Source of the DNA: an uncultured Alphaproteobacteria bacterium
GTDB lineage: Bacteria; Pseudomonadota; Alphaproteobacteria; HIMB59; GCA-002718135
Assembly: GCA_902582755.1 (NCBI GenBank)
Contig: CACHSZ010000001.1
Location: 113,774 to 177,773, forward strand
Direction: 5' to 3'
DNA: 64,000 bases
In this document: piece by piece, positions 1-11,368 of the stretch
Position numbering within the stretch: position 1 is the first letter of the stretch
How the letters are laid out: each line of letters begins with the position of its first letter
Position numbers and translations under genes: made by a program
The notes under the pieces: generated by a model
The model's input: only the letters and a program-made list of their open reading frames with translations
Told to the model about the DNA's origin: nothing
The model's database searches: none

Positions 1-513
1 AACAGGCTCTCTAACCATAGCACGACCAAGAGCAACTCTTTGTCTTTGACCACCTGACAATTGTCCTGGTTTTCTATCCAATAGTTCTGAAATTTTTAGA
101 GTTTCAGAAGTTTTATTTACTAATTGATTTATAGATTCTGTTTTCTCTTTTTTGCTTGGAGAAAAATTACCAATCAAGGGCAGTCTTTCAAATGCATTAT
201 AATCCCTTAGTCTTAATGGAGTTTCTAAATTTCTTCTTACTGTGAGATGAGGATAAAGAGCATATGATTGGAAGACCATTGCCAAATCTCTTTCACTGGC
301 TCTAACTCTATTTACATTTTTATTATCTATTAATACATCACCTGAAGTCTGCTGTTCCAATCCTGCAATTATTCTAAGTAATGTAGATTTACCACAACCA
401 GATGGACCAACTAACGTTAAGAATTCTCCATCGTTTATATCAACATTCAAATTATTAAGTACTTGTGTAGACCCAAATGACTTTGAAATATTTTTAAGTG
501 ATATTGTCCCCAC
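1..513 (-). CDS. ABC transporter ATP-binding protein, UgpC/MalK (CUT1) family; runs off the window start (3' part missing)
   Basis: Not in the ORF track; translated by hand from GTG at 513: MGTISLKNISKSFGSTQVL...[18 protein letters not shown] (Walker A)...AMVFQSYALYPHLTV...LSGGQRQRVALGRAMVREPV (signature). GGGGG RBS-like run upstream. Confidence 0.9.
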   Translation of the reverse strand, partial: MGTISLKNISKSFGSTQVLNNLNVDINDGEFLTLVGPSGCGKSTLLRIIAGLEQQTSGDVLIDNKNVNRVRASERDLAMVFQSYALYPHLTVRRNLETPLRLRDYNAFERLPLIGNFSPSKKEKTESINQLVNKTSETLKISELLDRKPGQLSGGQRQRVALGRAMVREPV

Positions 514-689: not shown

Positions 690-1931
690 GTGTCCGATAA
701 TTTAGAAATTAATAAAAGAGAATATCCAAGCTCTTTCTCAAAAACTGCTATTGTTATATGCCTTGATGGTAGTCAAAAAGAGTATCTCGAAGAAGCATCA
801 AAATCTAATCTTACACCAAATCTTGATAAATTAATTGCAAGTGGTGAAAACCTACTTGTTCACAGCGCTATTCCAAGTTTTACAAATCCAAATAACATTT
901 CGATTGTAACAGGCCAACCAAGTTCTGTACACGGTATATGCGGAAACTTCTTTTATACACCTGAGACTGGTGAAGAAGTTATGATGAATGACCCAAAATA
1001 TATGCGAGCACCAACTATTTTTGAAAAATTTTACAATTCTGGTTCTAAAATTGCTCTTGTTACTGCAAAAGACAAGTTGAGAACACTTTTAGGAAACGGA
1101 TTAAGTTTTGATGATGAGAGAGCTATTTGTTTTTCTGCTGAAAAATCTGATCAAGCAACAAAAGATCTCAATGGTATAGATAATGTAAACGATTGGTTGG
1201 GGATGCCAGTGCCAGAAGTATATTCTGAAGGACTCTCTGAATTTGTAATGGCTGCAGGTGTAAAACTTCTTGAAGAGTTTAAACCAAATATTATGTATTT
1301 ATCGACTACGGATTATATTCAACACAAATATGCACCGGGAAATGAAACAGCAAATAAATTTTATGCAATGTTTGATAAATATATTGGTCTTTTAAATAAT
1401 GAGAATGTTTCTATAATCATCACAGCAGATCACGGAATGAAACCAAAATCAAAAGAAGATGGTTCACCTAATGCAATATTTTTACAAGATTATTTAGATA
1501 AAAAATTTGAACCAAACATGGCTAAAGTCATCCTACCAATTACAGATCCATATGTCGTTCATCATGGTTCACTTGGTTCTTTTGCAACAATTTATTTAGA
1601 AGACAAGAGCAGGGTAGATTCAGTTGTAAATGCTATTAAAGAAATAAAAGATATAGAAGTTGTTTTAACAAAAGATGAAGGATGCTCTACTTATAATTTA
1701 CCTCCTGATAGAATGGGGGATATTATATGTATGTCTTCAGAATTTATGACTATTGGTTCATCGGAAGATAAACACAATCTTTCTGGATTAAATGAACCTT
1801 TACGTTCTCATGGAGGACTCCATGAAAGAGAAGTGCCATTCATATCAAATTTAAAATTACAAAACTTAGATACTAGCAAACAATTATATAACTATGATGC
1901 ATTTTATTATGCAATAAATGGAGCCCTATGA
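690..1931 (+). CDS. phnA: Phosphonoacetate hydrolase
   Basis: Alkaline phosphatase superfamily motifs [19 protein letters not shown] (catalytic Thr), [36 protein letters not shown]; overlaps phnY. Confidence 0.95.
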
Positions 1932-3370
1932 TGCACAAAAAAATGATTAATGAAGCAATGCGTATTGCTGGAGAAAAAGTTACTTCAGATAAAACAATAA
2001 ATGTTGAGTACCCTTTTACAGGTGAAGTAATCGGAACGGTTCCAGCCGGTACCGCAGAGCATGCAAGAAAGGCTTTAGATATAGCTGCAAATTATCAGCC
2101 TAAACTTACAAGATATGAGAGACAAAAAATTCTTCAAACTGCTGCAGAAGTACTTGTTAAAAGAAAAGAAGAAATTTCTGATATTATTACTTTAGAACTT
2201 GGTATCTCAAAACAAGATTCTTTATACGAAGTAGGAAGAGCTTTCGATGTATTTTCATTAACGGCTCAACTTTGTATTCATGATGATGGAGAAATATTTT
2301 CTTGTGATTTAACTCCGCATGGAAAAGCCAGAAAAATATTTACCATAAGAGAACCTTTAACGGCAATCTCAGCAATCACCCCATTTAATCATCCTTTGAA
2401 TATGGTAGCGCATAAAATTGCTCCTTCAATTGCAACTAATAATTGTACAGTATGTAAGCAGACAGAATTAACACCTTTAACAGCAATGGTACTCGCTGAT
2501 GTTTTATATGAAGCAGGCCTGCCACCAGAAATGTTTTCAGTTGTAACTGGATGGCCTCAAGATATCGGATCAGAAATGATCAAGAATCCAAATATCGATC
2601 TCATTACTTTTACAGGCAGTGTAGGTGTAGGAAAATTAATTGCTGAACAAGCTGGATACAAAAGAACTGTTCTTGAGTTAGGTGGTAATGATCCATTAAT
2701 TGTTTTAAATGACTTAGATGGTGATGATCTTAAAAAAGCTGTTGAGCTAGCTGTTACGGGAGCAACGAAAAATTCTGGTCAACGTTGTACAGCTGTTAAA
2801 AGAATACTTGTTCAAGAATCCATTGCAGATCAATTTGTTGAAATGGCTCTTGAGCGTGCAAAGAAAATTAAATTTGGTGATCCTATGAATATGGAAACAG
2901 ACTTAGGTACAGTTGTTAATGCTCAAGCTGCAGAACTTTTTGATAAAAGAGTTTCTATGGCTGAAGAAGACGGTGCAAAAATTTTATATCACCCTGGAAG
3001 AAAGGGTGCTTTGTTACCTCCAATAGTTGTAGATCACGTTGATCCTAAAAGTGAATTAGTTTTAGAAGAGACATTTGGTCCAGTTATCCCAATCATTCGT
3101 GTGCCTAATGACGATGAAGCTGTAATGAAAATATCTAATTCAACCGCATTCGGATTATCATCTGGTGTATGTACAAATAACTTCATGCGAGCAAAAAAAT
3201 ATATTCAAGGTTTAAATGTTGGTACGGTAAATATTTGGGAAGTTCCAGGTTATAGAATTGAAATGTCTCCTTTTGGAGGAATTAAAGATTCAGGTCTTGG
3301 TTACAAAGAGGGTGTTATTGAAGCAATGAAAAGTTTTACTAATGTAAAAACCTTTTCGCTACCTTGGTAA
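1928..3370 (+). CDS. phnY: Phosphonoacetaldehyde dehydrogenase (NAD-dependent ALDH)
   Basis: ALDH motifs [34 protein letters not shown]; PhnY-like [14 protein letters not shown] and [18 protein letters not shown]; 4-bp overlap with phnA. Confidence 0.93.
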
Positions 3371-3426
3371 ATAAACCAGTTTTTCTCTAATTTTTCTTAA
3401 TGCTGTGGAAAAATAAGCTTATTTTT

Positions 3427-3455
3427 TAGTAATATTTTCGTAATAAAATTGTAAC
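3427..3455 (+). promoter_or_regulatory. Pho box array (3 x 11-bp units) upstream of the substrate-binding protein gene
   Basis: TAGTAAT-ATTT-TCGTAAT-AAAA-TTGTAAC, exact 11-bp period, ending 51 bp before the ATG; GGAGG RBS downstream. Confidence 0.75.
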
Positions 3456-3506
3456 CCTTTGGGGCTACGTGTTAGATTAATATTATATTTGAATCGGAGG
3501 GATTAA

Positions 3507-4760
3507 ATGAAAAAATTAATTACAGGATTTGCAGCCGTATTAGCTTTTGGTTTTTATGGTTCTGTTAATTCAGCTAAGTCTATTGAAATAGAAGTAGCTT
3601 ATCCTTATTCAGGATTATTCGATGTAACTTTCCAAGCTATTATGCCAGAGTTTGAAAAAGCACATCCAGATATTCAAGTTAAATTTAGAGCAACTTATGA
3701 AAACTATGAGGATGCAACTGCAACAATCTTCAGAGAGTCTACTTCAGGTAATTTACCAGATGTAACAATGCAAGGTCTTAACAGACAGGCACCTCTAGTT
3801 GACAAAGGTATTGCTAAGTCTTTAGAGCCATTTATCGCAAAAGAAGCAGCTTTTGAAAAAGATGGTTACCATTCTGCTATGTTAAGTCTTTCAACATTCG
3901 GTGGTGAAGTTTATGGATTACCATTTTCTGTATCAACACCAGTTGGATATTATAACATGGATTTATTAGCTGAAGCAGGTGTAGATAGTATTCCAACTAA
4001 CTGGGACGAAGTTATTGCAGCATGTAATAAATTAGAAGCAGCAGGTAAAGGAACTCTATACTTCGGTTGGAACATTACAGGTAACTGGTTCCACCAAGCA
4101 TTAATGCATACTCAGAATGTTCCAATGGTTAAAGATGGAGCTGTAAATATGGGTGGAGATGCAGGACTTGCAACGTTAGAGCAAATGAAATCAATCATGA
4201 GCGGATGTAATATGCCAAACTATTCAATTGCTGATGGTCAAGCTGCGTTTAACGCAGGTACTATTGGTATGATGTTCTGGTCTACTTCAAGCTTGGGTTC
4301 AGTTAATGCTGCAAAGGCAGACTTTGTTTTAAAAACTGCACCATTCCCTGGAATGGCTGGAGTAAACAATGGAACACCAGCAAGATTACCAGCAGGTGGA
4401 AACGCTGCAATGTTAGTGTCTACATCTGATGATCCAGCAAGAGTTGATGCTGCATGGACTTTCTTAAAGTTCATAACATCAGGTATTGGTGCTGCATTAG
4501 TTGCTGAAACAACTGGATATGTTCCACCAAACAAAGCAGCGAATGATTTATTAGGTGATTTCTATAGTCAAAACCCTAATAAACTTACTGCTGTTGAACA
4601 ACTTCCACTTCTTGCTGATTGGTTTGCGTATCCTGGTGAAAATGGATTAGCTGTTACACAGGTAATCTATGATTACACGGAAGAAATTGCTACAGGCGAC
4701 GCTGATGATATGGCAGATCTTCAAGAAGAAATGATGGAAGAAATAAACGATCTTATGTAA
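3507..4760 (+). CDS. ABC transporter periplasmic substrate-binding protein, UgpB/CUT1 family
   Basis: Signal peptide (MKKLITGFAAVLAFG...SA), FEKAHPDIQV, YGLPFSVSTPVGYYNMDLL, PTNWDEV, AAWTFLKF, TGYVP; strong RBS; followed by a terminator. Confidence 0.88.
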   Translation: MKKLITGFAAVLAFGFYGSVNSAKSIEIEVAYPYSGLFDVTFQAIMPEFEKAHPDIQVKFRATYENYEDATATIFRESTSGNLPDVTMQGLNRQAPLVDKGIAKSLEPFIAKEAAFEKDGYHSAMLSLSTFGGEVYGLPFSVSTPVGYYNMDLLAEAGVDSIPTNWDEVIAACNKLEAAGKGTLYFGWNITGNWFHQALMHTQNVPMVKDGAVNMGGDAGLATLEQMKSIMSGCNMPNYSIADGQAAFNAGTIGMMFWSTSSLGSVNAAKADFVLKTAPFPGMAGVNNGTPARLPAGGNAAMLVSTSDDPARVDAAWTFLKFITSGIGAALVAETTGYVPPNKAANDLLGDFYSQNPNKLTAVEQLPLLADWFAYPGENGLAVTQVIYDYTEEIATGDADDMADLQEEMMEEINDLM

Positions 4761-4790
4761 TTTGAGATTATTTATTATTAACTTTTTATT

Positions 4791-4824
4791 ACAGCGGCTT
4801 TATAAAAGCCGCTGTTTTATTTTA
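4791..4824 (+). terminator. Intrinsic terminator / mRNA-stabilising hairpin after the SBP gene
   Basis: Perfect 11-bp stem ACAGCGGCTTT-ATA-AAAGCCGCTGT followed by a T-rich tract. Confidence 0.85.
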
Positions 4825-4847
4825 AATTTTAATGGGAGTAAAAATAG

Positions 4848-5927
4848 ATGCCTCTTAAAACAACCACAATAGGTGCTTATCCAAAACCGAAACAAACACC
4901 CATTCAAGATTGGTTTTTAGGGACAAAATCAGAAGAAGAGAGAAAAGCATCAAAAGGATTATTATCAAATTGGTCACCTGGCGCATATGAAAAAGCATTA
5001 GAGTCTGCAGGTGCGGATGCTGAAAAATTATTTTTAGCAGCAATTAAAGAAGTTATAACTGATCAAGTAAATGCGGGTATTGATGTTCCAACAGATGGAG
5101 AAGTCAGACGTGAGAGTTACGTATTATATCAATGTCGATTTTTAAATGGAGTAAGTTTTAAAGAAGTTACACATAAGTCAGTAAGACAAGGCGCGTTCGA
5201 AGCTGATCTTCCAACTATTGTTGCACCGATTTCAAGTAAAGAAATACGTATGCATCTAGACTGGAAGAGTGCACAACAATTTACAAAAAATCCAGTTAAA
5301 ATTACCCTACCTGGACCAATGACAATAACAGATTCAATTGCTAACAACTACTATGATGACATGAAAAAACTTGGTTTTGATTTAGCATTAGCTCTCAATA
5401 AAGAAATCAAGGCACTTGTAGATGCAGGTTGTCAGTATATTCAAATTGATGAACCAGTATTTGCTAGAAAGCCTGATGAAGCTCATTCATATGGTATGGA
5501 AAATTTAGAAAGAATGATGCATGGTATTCCTAAAGAAGTGCAACGCGTTTGCCATATTTGTTGTGGTTATCCCAACTCACTAGATTCAGAAGGGTATAAA
5601 AAGGCTGATCTAGATGCTTATGATAGAATTGCATCACTTGTAGATGATTCAACTATTGATGAAGTATCTTTGGAAGATTCACATAGGCATAATGATTTAA
5701 ATCTTTTAGAAAAATTTACTAAAACAAAAGTAATTTTTGGATTTATTGATATTGCAAAAAGTAGAATGGAGTCTGTTGAAGAAGTAAGAGTTCGTATCAA
5801 AGATTCACTTGAACATATTGATGAACACCGTTTAATAGCTGCACCAGATTGTGGTTTAGGTTTTTTTACCCGAGAACAAGCAATTGAGAAAATGACAATA
5901 TTAACTAAAGCGGCAAAATCAATTTAA
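4848..5927 (+). CDS. Short cobalamin-independent methionine synthase-like (MetE C-terminal / core Met synthase family) Zn enzyme; actual substrate unknown
   Basis: TTTIGAYPKP, QVNAGIDVPTDGEVRR, KITLPGPMTI, IQIDEP; Zn ligands in HICCGY, SLE and PDCGLG; only 359 aa, lacking the N-terminal half of MetE. Confidence 0.85.
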   Translation: MPLKTTTIGAYPKPKQTPIQDWFLGTKSEEERKASKGLLSNWSPGAYEKALESAGADAEKLFLAAIKEVITDQVNAGIDVPTDGEVRRESYVLYQCRFLNGVSFKEVTHKSVRQGAFEADLPTIVAPISSKEIRMHLDWKSAQQFTKNPVKITLPGPMTITDSIANNYYDDMKKLGFDLALALNKEIKALVDAGCQYIQIDEPVFARKPDEAHSYGMENLERMMHGIPKEVQRVCHICCGYPNSLDSEGYKKADLDAYDRIASLVDDSTIDEVSLEDSHRHNDLNLLEKFTKTKVIFGFIDIAKSRMESVEEVRVRIKDSLEHIDEHRLIAAPDCGLGFFTREQAIEKMTILTKAAKSI

Positions 5928-5931
5928 GGTA

Positions 5932-7044
5932 ATGTGGAATTATTTTAACCCTGTTGAAATTATCTTTGGAGAAAATAGATTTAAAGAAGTACATGATGCT
6001 GTTAAAAATAAAAAGTACATCATAATCACTCATCCAGAAGAAATTTTTAAAAAATATAGCGATGAATTAAAATCTTCTTCAAATCCACCTTTATCCATCA
6101 TGACGGATGTTCAGCCTAATCCAGATTATAAGGATATTTTAGAGTTACAAAATAAATTTTCTTCAATTAATGAATCGGTAGATTATATTTTAGCTATAGG
6201 TGGTGGCTCTGTTACAGACACAGCTAAAGCAATTGCTGCATTTAAAGATAAACAAGAATATCTAACAGATTTTGTTCGCAATAAGAAAAGTCCAAGAGTA
6301 GAAAATCCAATTAAGATTATTGCAATACCTACAACTTCAGGAACATCAAGTGAGCTTACGTGTTGGGCCACAATATGGGATAAAGAAAAAAATAATAAAT
6401 TATCTTTGGCGCATAAATCTCTTTATGCAGAAAAAGCAATTATCGATCCATCAATTATGGTTGATAAGCCTTTAGGCTTGACCATTTCAACAGGTTTAGA
6501 TGCTCTCTCTCATTCAATGGAAAGTATTTGGAATATTAATGCAAACCCAATTTCTGCTTCTCATGCAATACAAGCATCAAAATTAGTATTAGAAAATTTA
6601 CCACTTCTCACTAAAGATTTAAGAAATGTTGTATTACGTTCAAACATTGCACTGGCATGCGTTCATGCTGGCTTAGCGTTTTCCAATACGAAAACTGCTA
6701 TTGCGCACAATCTATCATACCCTGTGACACTCAATTACGGTATTCAGCATGGTATTGCTTGTTCATTTACTTTACCCATGATTACTAAAAGTATGGTTGG
6801 AATTGATAGTGTCGCTGAGGAAAGACTAAAATTAATTTTTAACGATAATCTAGAGAATGCCGCAAATCATCTGAGTGAATTTATGCGTTCTTTGGAAGTT
6901 CCTCTGAACTTAAATGAAATAAAAGTTCCTGTTCAAGAATGGAATAATATAGTAGATGACGCGTTTTTAGGAGAACGAGGTAAAAACTTTATTGGGAATA
7001 AAGAAGCCTTCATCTCTTCTGCTAAATCAATGGGACTTTATTAG
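5932..7044 (+). CDS. Iron-containing alcohol dehydrogenase, phosphonoacetaldehyde reductase-like
   Basis: GGGSVTDTAK, PTTSGTSSE, metal ligands in DALSHSMES, TAIAHNLSY and QHGIAC; WATIWD motif; located in the phosphonate cluster. Confidence 0.88.
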   Translation: MWNYFNPVEIIFGENRFKEVHDAVKNKKYIIITHPEEIFKKYSDELKSSSNPPLSIMTDVQPNPDYKDILELQNKFSSINESVDYILAIGGGSVTDTAKAIAAFKDKQEYLTDFVRNKKSPRVENPIKIIAIPTTSGTSSELTCWATIWDKEKNNKLSLAHKSLYAEKAIIDPSIMVDKPLGLTISTGLDALSHSMESIWNINANPISASHAIQASKLVLENLPLLTKDLRNVVLRSNIALACVHAGLAFSNTKTAIAHNLSYPVTLNYGIQHGIACSFTLPMITKSMVGIDSVAEERLKLIFNDNLENAANHLSEFMRSLEVPLNLNEIKVPVQEWNNIVDDAFLGERGKNFIGNKEAFISSAKSMGLY

Positions 7045-7046
7045 TA

Positions 7047-8153
7047 ATGAAAAAAAATTTCAGGTTTTATGATAACAGACAAAAATATTTATTATTTGTC
7101 ACAACAACAAATGAAAAAAATCAAATTGCTGATGCGATACGTCCTCACGTAAATAAAATTAAACCGCAAAAACCTGGTTTAAAAATATTTGATGCTGGGA
7201 TGGGTGATGGTTCCTTACTTATGAATGTTATGCGTCAGTGCCACGAGGCCAGGCCTAACGTACCTCTATTAGTTTGCACAAAAGAAATAAGTATTGAAGA
7301 TGTAAGATTAGGTTTGGAAAAATTACCCGATAGGTTTGTTGAGCATAAGAATACTGTTTTTGTAATTTCAAATTTACACTACGCTGAAGCCGCAAACCTA
7401 AAATCAAAAAATGACGTTAAACAGAAAAAAATTAATTGGAATATTATTAAATTAAAAGGTGACACCTCTCTTGAATTTGCCCAACAATTAAGAAAACAAA
7501 ATGAATTTTTAGAAAAAAAATGGAATATAGAAATTAATAAAAAGTCAGGTAACCATACTTATAAGGAGCCTTCAGTCATGGTTATTTACCGTGAAGATCA
7601 AGAATTTAATGTTAATGAATTAATACCAACCAAAAAAAAATCAGATAATAAATTTGATCTTATTATTGCTTCACAGCCTTATCGTTCAAGAATTTCAGCA
7701 GAAAAGAAATCAAAATATGTCATCGAACCAATGATTCGAGCGTTAAAATCAAAAGGGAAATTATTAACTATTCATGCTTCAGGAAAAGATCCTGCTAATG
7801 AAATAATTCGTAAAATTTGGCCAAAAGAGGACCCCTTTCCTTCTCTTGGGAATAGTATCATTTCTTATCTTAAGAAAAATTTAGATAAAGAGTTATTAAG
7901 CAGTTTATCTTTTGGAGAAAAAAGAATTATTAAATGTAAACTGAGAGCTCTACCAACAGAAATCACTGGAGGTATAGCGACATCATTAGTTTTCTCTGCT
8001 TGGAATGCCTCTATATATGTCAATCAAATGGATGATGATAAAGTTATGAAAGTAGAAAAAACAAAAAATTACGAAAAAGTAGTTCAAAAAATTGTTGCTA
8101 AAAATAAAGGTCTTTATTTTAACAATGAAATATTTGTAATCGAAAAAAAATAA
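7047..8153 (+). CDS. Conserved hypothetical protein with a class I SAM-dependent methyltransferase-like motif
   Basis: Motif I-like IFDAGMGDG, later FDLIIASQ and LKSKGKLL; 2-bp gap to the upstream gene. Confidence 0.6.
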   Translation: MKKNFRFYDNRQKYLLFVTTTNEKNQIADAIRPHVNKIKPQKPGLKIFDAGMGDGSLLMNVMRQCHEARPNVPLLVCTKEISIEDVRLGLEKLPDRFVEHKNTVFVISNLHYAEAANLKSKNDVKQKKINWNIIKLKGDTSLEFAQQLRKQNEFLEKKWNIEINKKSGNHTYKEPSVMVIYREDQEFNVNELIPTKKKSDNKFDLIIASQPYRSRISAEKKSKYVIEPMIRALKSKGKLLTIHASGKDPANEIIRKIWPKEDPFPSLGNSIISYLKKNLDKELLSSLSFGEKRIIKCKLRALPTEITGGIATSLVFSAWNASIYVNQMDDDKVMKVEKTKNYEKVVQKIVAKNKGLYFNNEIFVIEKK

Positions 8154-8157
8154 TTTT

Positions 8158-8946
8158 TTATTTAAACCAATTAACTTCTGTTTTTAAAAAATCCTCTGTA
8201 TGAATAATTAAGGCGTCAGATCGAATTATTGCAACATTATAATTTGTATCTGTATTTGCTGTCCCTAAACGATATTCATTTGAAAAGTTAGGAATTAGGG
8301 GAGACCAAGTACTTCTTGGGGAGGAAAAAGTAATACCACAATAAGAACCAGAACTTGTAATGTGTTGATGACCAAAAAAAATATGTTTTATTATCTTATT
8401 ATTTTTAGTTAAAATTTGTTGAAACTCTTTTTTTTGTTGTAATCCTATTCCATCACTTTCCTCTTTTACTAATGCTAGTGGATTATGATGCATAAAGATG
8501 TACGTATCTGTATTAGTTTTACCTAAAATATTATTTAACCATTCTTGCCTCTCTTCACAGTAATGTCCTTGGTGAGTATTAATCAGATTAGTATCTATAA
8601 AAATTAAACGTTTATTATCTATATCCTTAAAGTATTGAATAAATCCATTTGGATCGGTTTCAATATTAGGAAAGTTTATTTTAAACTCATCTCTGTTATC
8701 ATGATTACCTATAATGAGTTGAGGATTTAAATTCTTTGGCAGGCCTGCTTCATCAATGATTTTTATAAATAACTGATAAGAATCTTTATCACCTAAGTCT
8801 GTAATATCACCAGTGATGGCAAATAAATCTGCATCACCATGATTATTTTTTATATGACTTAATGCTTTTTTAAATTTACTGACAGGATCTATGCCATGAA
8901 TCTTATCTATATAAATATGGGGGTCTGAAAGGTGAATAATTTTCAT
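8158..8946 (-). CDS. Calcineurin-like metallophosphoesterase (GpdQ/CpdA-type phosphodiesterase)
   Basis: LSDPH, TGDITD, GNHD, FMHHNP, FFGHQH metal-binding motifs; no signal peptide. Confidence 0.88.
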   Translation of the reverse strand: MKIIHLSDPHIYIDKIHGIDPVSKFKKALSHIKNNHGDADLFAITGDITDLGDKDSYQLFIKIIDEAGLPKNLNPQLIIGNHDNRDEFKINFPNIETDPNGFIQYFKDIDNKRLIFIDTNLINTHQGHYCEERQEWLNNILGKTNTDTYIFMHHNPLALVKEESDGIGLQQKKEFQQILTKNNKIIKHIFFGHQHITSSGSYCGITFSSPRSTWSPLIPNFSNEYRLGTANTDTNYNVAIIRSDALIIHTEDFLKTEVNWFK

Positions 8947-8966
8947 TATTAAATATAAATTTATAA

Positions 8967-9599
8967 TTAGATCGCAGTTTTAAAATAAATATATTTATTA
9001 AATTCCTCTTTTAAGTCGATGCTAACTCTTGCATGTACTTTACCTTGTTTTCCATGAAATGATTGTTTTTCTTTAACTGGAAACACCCCTTCATGCCAAA
9101 TGTTTGGATGAATATACAAACCTTTTGATCCATCACAATAAAATGCTTTGAAATGTTCTGGTTCGATGTCGTCTGTTGGTAAAGCTAAAGGACAAATAAA
9201 TGGTTTATTTTCTGCAGGAAAAAAAAGCTGACCTCCATCAGGATGATAATTTGCATGCCATAGAAATATTTTTGTTGGATCTGAATATTTATCTTTTTGC
9301 AATTCTTGATCGGGGTTATTGGCATAACCCAGTATATATTTTCCATCTACTTCATAATCGCTCTTATGTTGGACAGCATTATTTTGTCCATAAAGCACAT
9401 CACCTTGCCACCAGGTATCAAAAGAACCTTCGGTAGTTCCACCTTCATTACCAGTTCCCTCTTCTATGTCGCGCCATCCTTGTTTTGGCCAAGTAACAAT
9501 TTCAATATCACTATTTTCAAAACTATCGATTAAATATCCGTATCCTTTAAGATTTTCATTTGTTGCTTTAACTAATGGTATTTCAATTTCTTTTGTCAT
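8967..9599 (-). CDS. Ureidoglycolate lyase (AllA)-like protein, divergent
   Basis: AT.E...GYG N-terminus, NYHPDGGQLFFP, FKAF.CDGSKGLYIHPNIWH; resembles the AllA fold, but the canonical ERHP reads NYHP. Confidence 0.65.
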   Translation of the reverse strand: MTKEIEIPLVKATNENLKGYGYLIDSFENSDIEIVTWPKQGWRDIEEGTGNEGGTTEGSFDTWWQGDVLYGQNNAVQHKSDYEVDGKYILGYANNPDQELQKDKYSDPTKIFLWHANYHPDGGQLFFPAENKPFICPLALPTDDIEPEHFKAFYCDGSKGLYIHPNIWHEGVFPVKEKQSFHGKQGKVHARVSIDLKEEFNKYIYFKTAI

Positions 9600-9606
9600 T
9601 ATTTTG

Positions 9607-10704
9607 TTAGTTTAATGTTAATCCCAATTCAGTAACGACTTCTTTTACAGCTTTTATTGTATCCATCATGTCTTGTTCATCTAAATTACCAATACACCCA
9701 ATTCTAAAAGTTTCTGCCACTGTTAGTTTTCCTGGATAAATTAAAAAATCTTTTTCACTAAGAGCATTATAAAATTTCTCAAAGTTAAATTTAGGATCAT
9801 TAGGTTGTTTAAAAGTAATAATAATTGGTGCTTGCAAATTATCAGGAAGTAGTTGTTCAAATCCCAACTCTTTCATTCCATTACAAATAATTTCACAATT
9901 TTTTTTATATCTTTTACCTCTTCCCTTTACACCGCCTTGTTGTTTATGTTCCTCAATCGCTTGATTGAATGCAGCCAATACGTGTGTAGGAGGTGTAAAT
10001 CGCCATTGTTTATTTTTTTCCATTGCTTGCCATTGATCATATAAGTCTAGACTTAGTGAGTGACTATTGCCTTTTGCATTTTGAATAACTTCATTTTTAA
10101 CAAGAATGAAACCAACACCTGGCACACCTTCTAAGCATTTGTTTGATGAAGCGGCTACAGCATCAAAAGTAATTATTTTAGAACTTAAGGGTAATGCACC
10201 AAAGGCACTCATTGCATCGATGAATAACGATAAATTTTTCTCTTCAACCAATTTTGCAATGTCTTCAATAGGATTTAAAATACCCGATGTTGTTTCACAA
10301 TATACGGCAAAGACGTGTGTTAAGCTGTTGCTATCAATTAACTCTTCAATTTTATTGATGTCATGAACTTCATGTTCAGCAACTTCATATTCAATAAAAT
10401 CTCTCCCTAAATATGTGCACATTTTTTTCATTCTTTGTCCGTAAGCACCATTGATCAGAATCAGAATTTTAGAATCTTTTTGAGTAAGAGAGCTCACCAT
10501 CGACTCTACAGCAAAAGTTCCACTTCCCTGCATTGGAACACATTGATATTTATCTTCACCATCTATTAATTTAACAAGGGAATCTCTAATTGATGCATTG
10601 AGATCAATAAATTTTGTATCTCTCGAACCCCAATCATGAAGCATAGCCTCTTTTGTTGACATCGATGTCGTAAGAGGCCCAGGGGTTAATAATTTTTTAT
10701 CCAT
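9607..10704 (-). CDS. phnW: 2-aminoethylphosphonate--pyruvate transaminase
   Basis: LLTPGPLTTS, DWGSRD, QGSGTFAVE, CETTSGILNP, DAMSAFGA, SSNKCLEGVPG (PLP Lys), QWRFTPPTH, IYPGK. Confidence 0.96.
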   Translation of the reverse strand: MDKKLLTPGPLTTSMSTKEAMLHDWGSRDTKFIDLNASIRDSLVKLIDGEDKYQCVPMQGSGTFAVESMVSSLTQKDSKILILINGAYGQRMKKMCTYLGRDFIEYEVAEHEVHDINKIEELIDSNSLTHVFAVYCETTSGILNPIEDIAKLVEEKNLSLFIDAMSAFGALPLSSKIITFDAVAASSNKCLEGVPGVGFILVKNEVIQNAKGNSHSLSLDLYDQWQAMEKNKQWRFTPPTHVLAAFNQAIEEHKQQGGVKGRGKRYKKNCEIICNGMKELGFEQLLPDNLQAPIIITFKQPNDPKFNFEKFYNALSEKDFLIYPGKLTVAETFRIGCIGNLDEQDMMDTIKAVKEVVTELGLTLN

Positions 10705-10792
10705 TAAATATTTACTTAATAAATATTATTATAAATTTGATCAATCTTATTAAAGTTGGAATTGAATTTATTTTCTAATAAGTTAATTATAA

Positions 10793-11368
10793 ATGAGAAT
10801 GGAAGAAAATATTGTAGATTATCTCTTAGATCTTTTGAAAACAAAAGGTGCTGATATTCAATATGGTAATGAGGATGTGACCCAGCTTGAGCACGCACTC
10901 CAATGTGCTGAACTTGCTGAAAAACATAAATTACCAGGACCAACAATTGCTGCAGCATTACTGCATGATGTTGGCCACCTTATTTATGAGGACGGCGATC
11001 CCATTCATGAAGGGAAAGATGGTCATCATGAAAACTTAGGTGCTGATTTTTTAAAAAAATATTTTAATGAAGATGTTATTTTACCAATAAGAGCACATGT
11101 TGATTCAAAAAGATATTTATCAAGTGTTGAAGAAGGTTATTATGATAGTCTATCAGAAGCATCGAAACTTTCGTTAAAAGTTCAAGGCGGTCCTTTCACA
11201 AAAGAAGAAGCAGATGCGTTTATAAGTAAACCTTTTATGGATGAGGCAGTAGAGCTTAGAAGATTTGATGATCTAGCAAAAATTCTAGATAAAAAAACTC
11301 CCGATGTTGAACATTTTCGCCCCTATTTAGAAGAAGCAAGACAGTCTTTTTTAGCTAAACAAGCGTAA
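10793..11368 (+). CDS. phnZ: HD-domain diiron phosphonate oxygenase (PhnZ family)
   Basis: YGNEDVTQLEHALQCA, AALLHDVGH, HENLGA, HVDSKRYL, LSEASKLSLKVQGGPF, LRRFDDLAK; start may be the ATG at 10799. Confidence 0.9.
   Translation: MRMEENIVDYLLDLLKTKGADIQYGNEDVTQLEHALQCAELAEKHKLPGPTIAAALLHDVGHLIYEDGDPIHEGKDGHHENLGADFLKKYFNEDVILPIRAHVDSKRYLSSVEEGYYDSLSEASKLSLKVQGGPFTKEEADAFISKPFMDEAVELRRFDDLAKILDKKTPDVEHFRPYLEEARQSFLAKQA

Follow-up and report, generated by a model that had tools for sequence, protein, structure and literature searches.

The gene at positions 4848 to 5927 of the window (the whole 64,000-nucleotide stretch that was analysed, G000:C1:113774-177773, from a host genome of 1.43 Mb that has about 29% G+C and is 85% complete) encodes a MetE-like zinc enzyme that belongs with an ABC importer, not with phnW. 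Judged from its sequence, the gene appears to represent a family of its own, of uncharacterised kind and a variant of a known enzyme type, and the best reading of the enzyme is as a homocysteine methyltransferase that would harvest methyl groups from imported methylated organophosphorus cargo. The features around it are as follows (window positions unless stated).

1..513, minus strand: 5' part of the ABC ATPase gene of a Ugp-type importer (UgpC the best model, below cut-off), co-segregating with the MetE-like gene
G000:C1:111311-114286, upstream of the window: rest of the ATPase and two permeases (UgpC, UgpA and UgpE the best models, below cut-off)
690..1931, plus strand: phnA, phosphonoacetate hydrolase (TIGR02335, 468 bits, cut-off 408)
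1928..3370, plus strand: phnY, phosphonoacetaldehyde dehydrogenase (TIGR03250, 799 bits, cut-off 636)
3507..4760, plus strand: UgpB-like (CUT1) solute-binding protein of the importer, sharing its 36 of 61 genomes exactly with the MetE-like gene
4791..4815, plus strand: 11-bp hairpin and then a T run, in the spacer that separates the binding-protein and MetE-like genes
4848..5927, plus strand: MetE-fold single-barrel zinc enzyme gene (359 amino acids, ATG start, stop codon ending at 5927)
5932..7044, plus strand: Fe-ADH of the PhpC type, probable HEP dehydrogenase (TIGR03405, 364.5 bits, under the cut-off of 423.7)
7047..8153, plus strand: unannotated methyltransferase-fold protein (no family over cut-off), not co-segregating with the MetE-like gene
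8158..8946, minus strand: GpdQ/SpdA-like metallophosphoesterase, a neighbour that does not co-segregate
9607..10704, minus strand: phnW, AEP-pyruvate transaminase (511 bits, cut-off 296), not found in sister-family carriers
10793..11368, plus strand: PhnZ/TmpB-like HD-domain oxygenase (200 bits, just under the cut-off of 215)

The first-pass annotation had placed the gene inside a phosphonate cluster, 4 bp upstream of the Fe-ADH. Both statements hold (stop at 5927, Fe-ADH ATG at 5932), although the HD-domain oxygenase and the Fe-ADH score under the cut-offs of their models. The order phnA-phnY-binding protein-enzyme-Fe-ADH is constant in 68 loci of one lineage at 81–100% identity, every miss among the five genes falling at a contig end, and orthologues of the MetE-like protein reach down to 54% identity; therefore, 4848–5927 is a real gene and not a chance ORF. 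By analogy with the published system (PMC13576164), the Fe-ADH is probably a 2-hydroxyethylphosphonate (HEP) dehydrogenase. The nearest named models and structures of the binding protein include UgpB. The hairpin (z −4.46, 0 of 200 shuffles) has counterparts of differing sequence at the same place in all six orthologous spacers printed, and is a candidate terminator-like or mRNA-stabilising element. No Rfam riboswitch was matched at gathering score in eight loci, and a promoter scan gave 30 sites against 42.7 expected, which is uninformative. Metatranscriptome contigs in four sets from four studies cover the MetE-like gene, bridging binding protein and enzyme in X1, X4 and X7 and enzyme and Fe-ADH in all four, with DNA carry-over possible and neither a single transcript nor its level readable from them.

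Several observations concern the island as a whole. Its proteins are mostly 97–100% identical over dozens of species-representative genomes (L001–L050 against window positions 690–11368), pointing to recent exchange or to species that are very finely split. It is also a slot for swappable importers (L002:14246-17255, L042:14368-20367, L053:16340-20363 and L057:15067-19952), which include a second one of the sugar type, one followed by a hydrolase-like gene, one of the phnS2 type, and an apparent betaine-type importer (by eye) with a short-chain dehydrogenase beside phnW. A ureidoglycolate-lyase-like gene (8967–9599) stays beside phnW in related loci, and we know of no role for it in phosphonate use. 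A polysaccharide-lyase-like gene (PF14099, 11902–12909) lies between a phosphatase gene and pit, and is found in one of 70 related loci (L024). The methyltransferase-fold protein falls only in unnamed clusters of the ESM Atlas; its gene persists after loss of the importer module yet adjoins family members in other lineages, with a 468-aa form in L135 and L141 and two copies in L142. In the text available from PMC10734472, HIMB59 phosphonate islands are C-P lyase islands, and methionine, phnW and phnA are not mentioned.

The product had been described as a 359-aa single-barrel MetE homologue, with which the ORF, the Pfam match and the structural comparison agree. PF01717 (Meth_synt_2) covers residues 53–357 (E 8.6e-35, 121 bits against a gathering cut-off of 21), and the Meth_synt_1 domain is absent from the protein in Pfam. 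The AlphaFold model (mean pLDDT 93.2) has as its top Foldseek match the MesD-type structure 3RPD (TM 0.84/0.88, 30% identity), which is also the top PDB sequence match, so that Pfam score, barrel fold and zinc ligands (His-x-Cys, Glu, Cys) are all those of the PF01717 superfamily. However, all 11 NCBIfam methionine-synthase models matched by the protein score below their cut-offs: PRK04326 (196 vs. 406 bits) and PRK09121 (193.8 vs. 392) are the best, with PRK00957, which we take to be the model linked to MesA, at 115 vs. 258 and TIGR01371 at 92 vs. 930. The ESM Atlas gives the enzyme automatic MetE labels only. Its nearest solved relative is MesD, and it is 33% identical to a MesD adjoining DUF1852. 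In trees built with FastTree on 159 rows and with IQ-TREE (quick mode, LG+G4) on 50 of those rows, with MesD, MetE and XecA (Xaut_4865, annotated as 2-hydroxypropyl-CoM lyase) as references and MesA, MesB and MesC left out, the protein falls in a family separate from all three references; support for its clade is 100 and 99, the deep branching order being uncertain owing to long branches among the references. These trees and the sub-cut-off model scores uphold the first-pass view of a MetE-fold zinc enzyme, which they place in no described family. We found no paper on this family or on a MetE-like gene in phosphonate clusters, in a search beyond which most subscription papers lay and which does not establish absence from print.

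The residues of the active site were placed by alignment.

5553, 5559, 5673 and 5850, plus strand: zinc ligands H236, C238, E276 and C335
5100 and 5448, plus strand: predicted homocysteine amino-binding residues E85 and D201
4875, plus strand: Ala10, at the Ser433 position

The zinc ligands, called intact in the first pass, align with those of MesD, MetE and XecA and are kept in 215, 214, 214 and 213 of 215 aligned family rows, around the family motif H-x-C-C-G-Y-P. Ser433, Glu484 and Asp599 bind homocysteine in core synthases (Price et al., PMC7857596). E85 is kept in 212 of the 215 rows and D201 in all, whereas at the position equivalent to Ser433 the rows have mostly Ala (169) and less often Ser (35). 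In XecA, the Glu85 position is occupied by Arg and the Ala10 position by Asn, which would make an amino-bearing thiol a likelier acceptor than CoM. Homocysteine, already proposed as the methyl acceptor in the first pass, is thus the likely one given that E85 and D201 are kept, although the replacement of Ser mostly by Ala means that the acceptor might be another compound. R207, D246 and K252 are present in 215 of 215 rows, and C239, Y241, Y258 and H279 in 214. Among these near-invariant positions, C239, R207 and D246, together with D277, are specific to the family and common to the importer clade and the rest; C239 is missing in MesD, MetE and XecA. The importer clade is set apart chiefly by an N-terminal insertion (approximately residues 36–44) and a few positions near 93–98, and the invariant site is identical in the clade and the rest of the family, so that one chemistry across both is likely. 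The aromatic residues are mostly common to MesD, and therefore no specific trimethylammonium cage can be claimed.

The tie to the importer emerges from a survey of 61 genomes of the order (G000 included), in two families, as would fit the HIMB59 order described in PMC10734472, and many of them only 55–90% complete; these genomes are kin, and therefore the counts reflect a few events, not 61. The MetE-like orthologue (at least 71% identity) is found in 36 genomes, and the binding protein (at least 88%) in exactly the same 36, with one further genome carrying a 60% binding protein at a contig end. phnA is present in 46 genomes. All 11 genomes with phnA and without the enzyme retain phnA and phnY at the locus, where they also lack the rest of the module: the importer ATPase and permeases that precede phnA, and the binding protein that follows phnY. 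The methyltransferase-fold gene is retained in eight of these 11, PhpC in three, and a 3' remnant of PhpC alone in two. These remnants (L234:9699-9803 and L235:9470-9601), lying between phnY and the methyltransferase-fold gene, are a deletion scar, in which binding protein, enzyme and most of PhpC were lost. The Fe-ADH accompanies the enzyme in 35 of 36 carriers, the exception lying at a contig end, and occurs without the module in three genomes. Neighbourhood conservation, which the first pass had named as a check, is thus borne out by the constant order in 68 loci, the 36 of 36 co-occurrence and the 11 of 11 joint losses. The same first reading of the locus had overlooked the Ugp-type ABC importer, the tightest partner of the MetE-like gene.

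By contrast, phnW is found in 19 of the 36 carriers and in none of the 24 sister-family genomes, of which 13 are carriers; a phnW HMM search in five sister-family genomes gave nothing over cut-off. Because these 13 carriers lack phnW, while gene and importer share the same 36 genomes, the enzyme is tied to the importer rather than to phnW. The sister-family cluster (five loci) consists of importer, phnA, phnY, binding protein, enzyme and PhpC. A TIGR03364-type FAD enzyme was found in none of four sister-family carriers tested, a close TIGR03329-type enzyme is absent from the phnW-less carriers tested (29% identity at best), and a Phn-HD oxygenase was found in none of five sister-family carriers, in a search whose controls were silent. 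In phnW-less carriers without the known FAD or HD routes, a demethylated amino-phosphonate would therefore have no known path to phosphate, and the proposal that the enzyme yields a PhnW-compatible substrate finds no support. In place of the module, the two sister-family genomes that have phnA but lack it possess a TIGR03364 FAD oxidoreductase together with a phnS2-type importer.

Whether the genome has another methionine synthase was a point that the first pass had left for checking, and the genome holds three further genes of related type or reaction. One is the single PF02574 gene of the host genome (no named subfamily), PF02574 homocysteine methyltransferases being present also in five of five relatives tested. 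The second is a paralogue of the MetE-like gene (G000:C1:308625-309674, L072:8626-9675; approximately 49–50% identical), which lies directly behind a PehA-like phosphoester hydrolase gene (412 bits, cut-off 900), with an oligopeptide-type importer opposite, and is carried by 31 of 37 genomes in the genus and by none of 24 in the sister family. The third is a distant MetE-like gene (22%; G000:C1:294671-295798, L071:8672-9799), amid SnoaL-like, cupin and HisD-like genes, with 44–53% relatives on Ruegeria, Octadecabacter and sphingomonad plasmids. At other paralogue loci, the place of the PehA-like hydrolase is taken by a CehA/McbA-like one (L114) or by a polyamine-type importer (L117). Neither the MetE N-domain (PF08267, no match over cut-off) nor the MetH activation domain was found in the 85% complete genome. 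Since the orthologue is missing from 25 of the 61 relatives, and the complete relative genome G030 has no PF01717 gene whatever, the MetE-like gene is not needed as a housekeeping synthase. The first pass had set against its own reading the picture of a housekeeping enzyme whose orthologues usually lie outside phosphonate loci; close orthologues do lie in phosphonate loci and the gene is not needed for housekeeping, so that for them this picture is not supported, and in the wider family eight of 16 loci do lack phosphonate and methylamine genes.

That wider family was surveyed in two samples. Family members are present in 16 of 401 alphaproteobacterial genomes, at 17 loci of which one is the paralogue and 16 were counted (raw neighbour counts; 48 neighbouring proteins, picked by eye and mostly from 126, were compared with NCBIfam and 34 with Pfam, the others by BLAST to markers or left unnamed). 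TmpA-like genes adjoin family members of 43–55% identity in five of the 16 loci, two of them over the TmpA cut-off and three under it, the latter partly broken or cut genes. TmpB over cut-off, phnA and a phnS2 importer occur in one locus of 16 each, a dimethylglycine-dehydrogenase-like gene, betA, betB, betC or a carnitine dehydrogenase gene lies beside the family in six, and eight have neither phosphonate nor methylamine genes nearby. A TmpA-like match is present in nine of 15 family-bearing genomes against 31 of 385 others (kin are not independent), and the PRK07534 betaine-homocysteine methyltransferase in eight of 15 against 57 of 385; both enrichments may reflect a shared lifestyle. That the enzyme replaces PRK07534 was considered and ruled out, the two co-occurring at these frequencies. 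A plasmid search for the enzyme gave MesD-type proteins of 33% identity or less as its best matches, with no family member among the matches listed.

The second sample comprised metagenome loci, the best 80 of 531 matches. Within the query clade of these 80, the binding protein lies upstream of the enzyme in ten loci, directly in nine and with a phosphoesterase between them in L131; L132 and L133 carry the enzyme without an importer in 3.6–4 kb of upstream DNA. phnA or phnY is near the enzyme in L128, L133, L137 and L139, a TIGR03366-like Zn-ADH, which we infer to be PbfG from its Pfam family and context, in L133 and L136 (271 and 209 bits, under the cut-off of 328), and a beta-hydroxyacid dehydrogenase in L135, L137 and L141; metK is directly upstream in L133. 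Outside the importer clade, where 65 proteins, most of them from 95, were scanned (again within the best 80 of 531), phnW is near a family member in L160 and L188, and phnX in L188; an MttB-family gene and a TmpB-like gene follow one in L165. Several other loci lie behind polyamine-type importers near taurine/beta-alanine genes, or show no clear theme. A family member in L172, and one in L178, is flanked by pit/phoU on one side and on the other by a long PF02574 homocysteine methyltransferase gene, after which come arsenic-resistance-like genes. In L140, a choline-kinase-family gene is two genes on from a family member.

Taken together, we propose that a five-gene accessory module, consisting of an ABC ATPase, two permeases, a binding protein and the MetE-like protein as its cytoplasmic enzyme, is plugged into the phnA-phnY-phpC cluster. 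The zinc would activate the thiolate of homocysteine, which would take a methyl group directly from a small zwitterionic cargo, so that methionine would be made without folate, cobalamin or MesX. The donor would be a trimethylammonium organophosphorus cargo, 2-trimethylaminoethylphosphonate (trimethyl-AEP) first, or a phosphocholine-type headgroup or the betaine derived from it. What the cell would gain are methyl groups and methionine, whereas phosphorus would come via PhpC-PhnY-PhnA from an HEP-type cargo of the same importer, not from the product of the enzyme.

That the methyl donor is a trimethylammonium compound brought in by the importer is a tentative proposal, which we would put at somewhat under an even chance. 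Quaternary ammonium methyl donors have a precedent in the zinc-dependent BHMT. In favour of a trimethylammonium donor are the kept E85, D201 and zinc site, the TmpA, betaine and choline neighbours, the co-segregation with the importer (36 of 36) and the joint losses (11 of 11), the UgpB-like binding protein, the position of the paralogue behind a PehA-like hydrolase with an importer, and the lack of a MetE N-domain, a MetH activation domain and MesX in the 85% complete genome. Against it, the steady phnA, phnY and alcohol dehydrogenase link is left to co-import, half of the class-wide loci have neither phosphonate nor methylamine genes, and PRK07534 is not replaced. In the text available from PMC10590968, trimethyl-AEP is not a substrate of PbfB-D and TmpA/TmpB is the sole route described for it, as is also the case in that of PMC10574752, while phpC with phnY-phnA is the HEP degradation route in the available text of Piazza et al. 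(2026; PMC13576164).

An alternative for the donor, which we regard as unlikely, is that the homocysteine thiolate attacks the P-O-CH3 group of an imported ester, such as an HEP methyl ester, to give methionine and HEP; PhpC, PhnY and PhnA would then convert HEP to acetate and phosphate, with C-O cleavage in place of a GpdQ-like hydrolysis. Importer orthologues (62–65% identity) on Phaeobacter and Tritonibacter plasmids (three plasmid regions, plus two genome loci) have a metallophosphoesterase gene behind the binding protein and no MetE-like gene, and a 42% importer relative in Tistrella is arranged likewise; the phosphoesterase of the window itself is GpdQ-like. In the importer clade, the MetE-like gene fills that slot in nine of ten metagenome loci (best 80 of 531). 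Furthermore, only with HEP as the product does the sister-family cluster make up a complete pathway, an alcohol dehydrogenase is near the enzyme in separate lineages, though of different families (PhpC type, TIGR03366-like, beta-hydroxyacid dehydrogenase), and in two genomes only a 3' remnant of PhpC is left where the module was lost. However, PhpC persists without the module in three genomes, HEP itself is a natural substrate (PMC13576164, in the text available), and the betaine and choline neighbours of the wider family are left unexplained. L131 and L140 hold both a phosphoesterase and the enzyme, and the paralogue lies behind a hydrolase, which suggests sequential action and not replacement. 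We know of no natural HEP methyl ester, and a literature search for one found nothing relevant; moreover, an anionic phosphonate monoester is a poor methyl donor, so that the donor chemistry is weaker. Table 1 of PMC10132767 includes a phosphate-starvation-induced importer whose layout matches that of these importers. Beyond the clade, the rule that the importer is always followed by the enzyme was ruled out, both by the phosphodiesterase in the slot in Phaeobacter/Tritonibacter and by the enzyme without importer in L132 and L133.

Whichever donor applies, a MetE-fold enzyme that moves a methyl group from a phosphonate, be it the P-O-methyl ester of HEP or trimethyl-AEP, to homocysteine, with one module leading to both methionine and phosphate via PhpC-PhnY-PhnA, is a possibility that falls short of even probability in our judgement.

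It is quite unlikely that the enzyme is instead a core methionine synthase of a fifth type, supplied from central metabolism or by a protein partner and hitch-hiking in the island. MesD is the closest solved relative, all catalytic residues are kept, the paralogue, with approximately 50% identity, is a near-core gene of the genus (31 of 37 genomes), and metK is directly upstream in L133. However, the distribution is accessory (36 of 61), with a strict tie to one importer and joint loss; a complete relative has no PF01717 gene while PF02574 genes are present in the host and five of five relatives, and no mesX-like conserved partner gene occurs across the family. Very unlikely in turn is an attack on the CH2 carbon of trimethyl-AEP (or elimination and re-addition), by which trimethylamine would leave and HEP, or a thioether resolved to HEP, would result. 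Such a reaction would join the TmpA/TmpB and PhpC-PhnY-PhnA signals of the context and complete the sister-family pathway, and the extra invariant cysteine C239 (214 of 215 rows), absent from MesD, MetE and XecA, speaks in its favour; yet it has no precedent in the MetE fold apart from epoxide opening, and an amino-acid thiol is suggested by the kept Glu and Asp. The first-pass alternative, in which coenzyme M or a different thiol would be used to open fosfomycin or another epoxide phosphonate, can be set aside as highly improbable: XecA shares the fold and zinc ligands, but is only 22% identical, has Arg and Asn in place of Glu85 and Ala10 and falls on a separate branch in both trees, and no alkene-monooxygenase or CoM genes or other support from context occur among the neighbours examined.

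Methyl harvesting from a phosphonate, if correct, would give phosphonate catabolism its first methyl-transfer step and point to a methylated phosphonate that has gone unnoticed in seawater; it would supply methionine and phosphate to abundant ocean bacteria without MetE and MetH. If the best reading holds, methionine would be made from dissolved methylated phosphorus compounds with neither cobalamin nor folate, and marine phosphorus, sulfur and one-carbon cycling would be tied together. The gene or its paralogue is present in 48 of 61 genomes of an abundant streamlined marine lineage and scattered in other Alphaproteobacteria (16 of 401), as an unnamed family that pipelines misread as methionine synthase. 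Because the gene comes and goes cleanly with a single importer, the proposal can be tested directly, for the ligand of the binding protein would point to the donor; cultured Phaeobacter, in which the importer is accompanied by a phosphodiesterase instead, could serve both as host and for comparison. The deletion series is new, as are the lack of phnW and FAD enzymes among sister-family carriers, the roseobacter phosphodiesterase in the slot, and the TmpA/betaine context.

Compared with known systems, the enzyme resembles MesD (3RPD) in its single C-terminal-type barrel of approximately 350 amino acids, its His-Cys-Glu-Cys zinc site and the amino-binding Glu and Asp. It differs from MesD in its identity of 33%, below the assignment threshold of approximately 55% or more (PMC7857596, in the text available), in its PRK09121 score (194 vs. 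392 bits) and separate branch, in the mostly Ala residue at the Ser433 position and the family-specific C239, R207, D246 and D277, and in the tie of its family to importers and catabolic genes. Also unlike for MesD, no MesX was found beside the gene or elsewhere in the 85% complete genome: a genuine MesX used as tblastn query matched none of 206 loci except its own and had no match in the genome, and a PF08908 (MesX) search was empty, its positive controls being silent too. MesA, MesB and MesC are expected in anaerobes that have methanogenesis or Wood-Ljungdahl corrinoid proteins, and the present host is a streamlined marine alphaproteobacterium. With MetE and split MetE the enzyme shares the catalytic barrel and zinc ligands, but not the folate-binding N-terminal barrel, fused or separate; for folate-independent MetE fusions, use of betaine or S-methylmethionine has been put forward as speculation (PMC10861871). 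With XecA (epoxyalkane:coenzyme M transferase) it shares fold, zinc ligands and thiol activation, whereas the 22% identity, the kept Glu85 in place of Arg, the branch and the context set the two apart.

Among phosphonate systems, the sister-family cluster is exactly the phpC with phnY-phnA without phnW of the PhpC/PbfG HEP clusters (PMC13576164), and the module recalls the PbfB-D ancillary enzymes, through which the hydrolytic route takes in more substrates (Zangelmi et al., 2023; PMC10590968). Unlike the MetE-like gene in our reading, these systems have no methyl-transfer step, methionine or methyltransferase in the text searched of either paper, nor are methionine or a methyltransferase mentioned in that of PMC9381506; and with phnW in 19 of 36 carriers and none of 13 in the sister family, the gene does not track phnW as an ancillary gene would be expected to. 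The zinc-dependent BHMT is mentioned in the introduction of PMC7857596. The reaction type that we propose is that of BHMT. BHMT (PF02574) performs a zinc-thiolate methyl transfer from a quaternary amine to homocysteine; its sequence family is unrelated to the MetE-like one, with which, unlike a replacement partner, it co-occurs.
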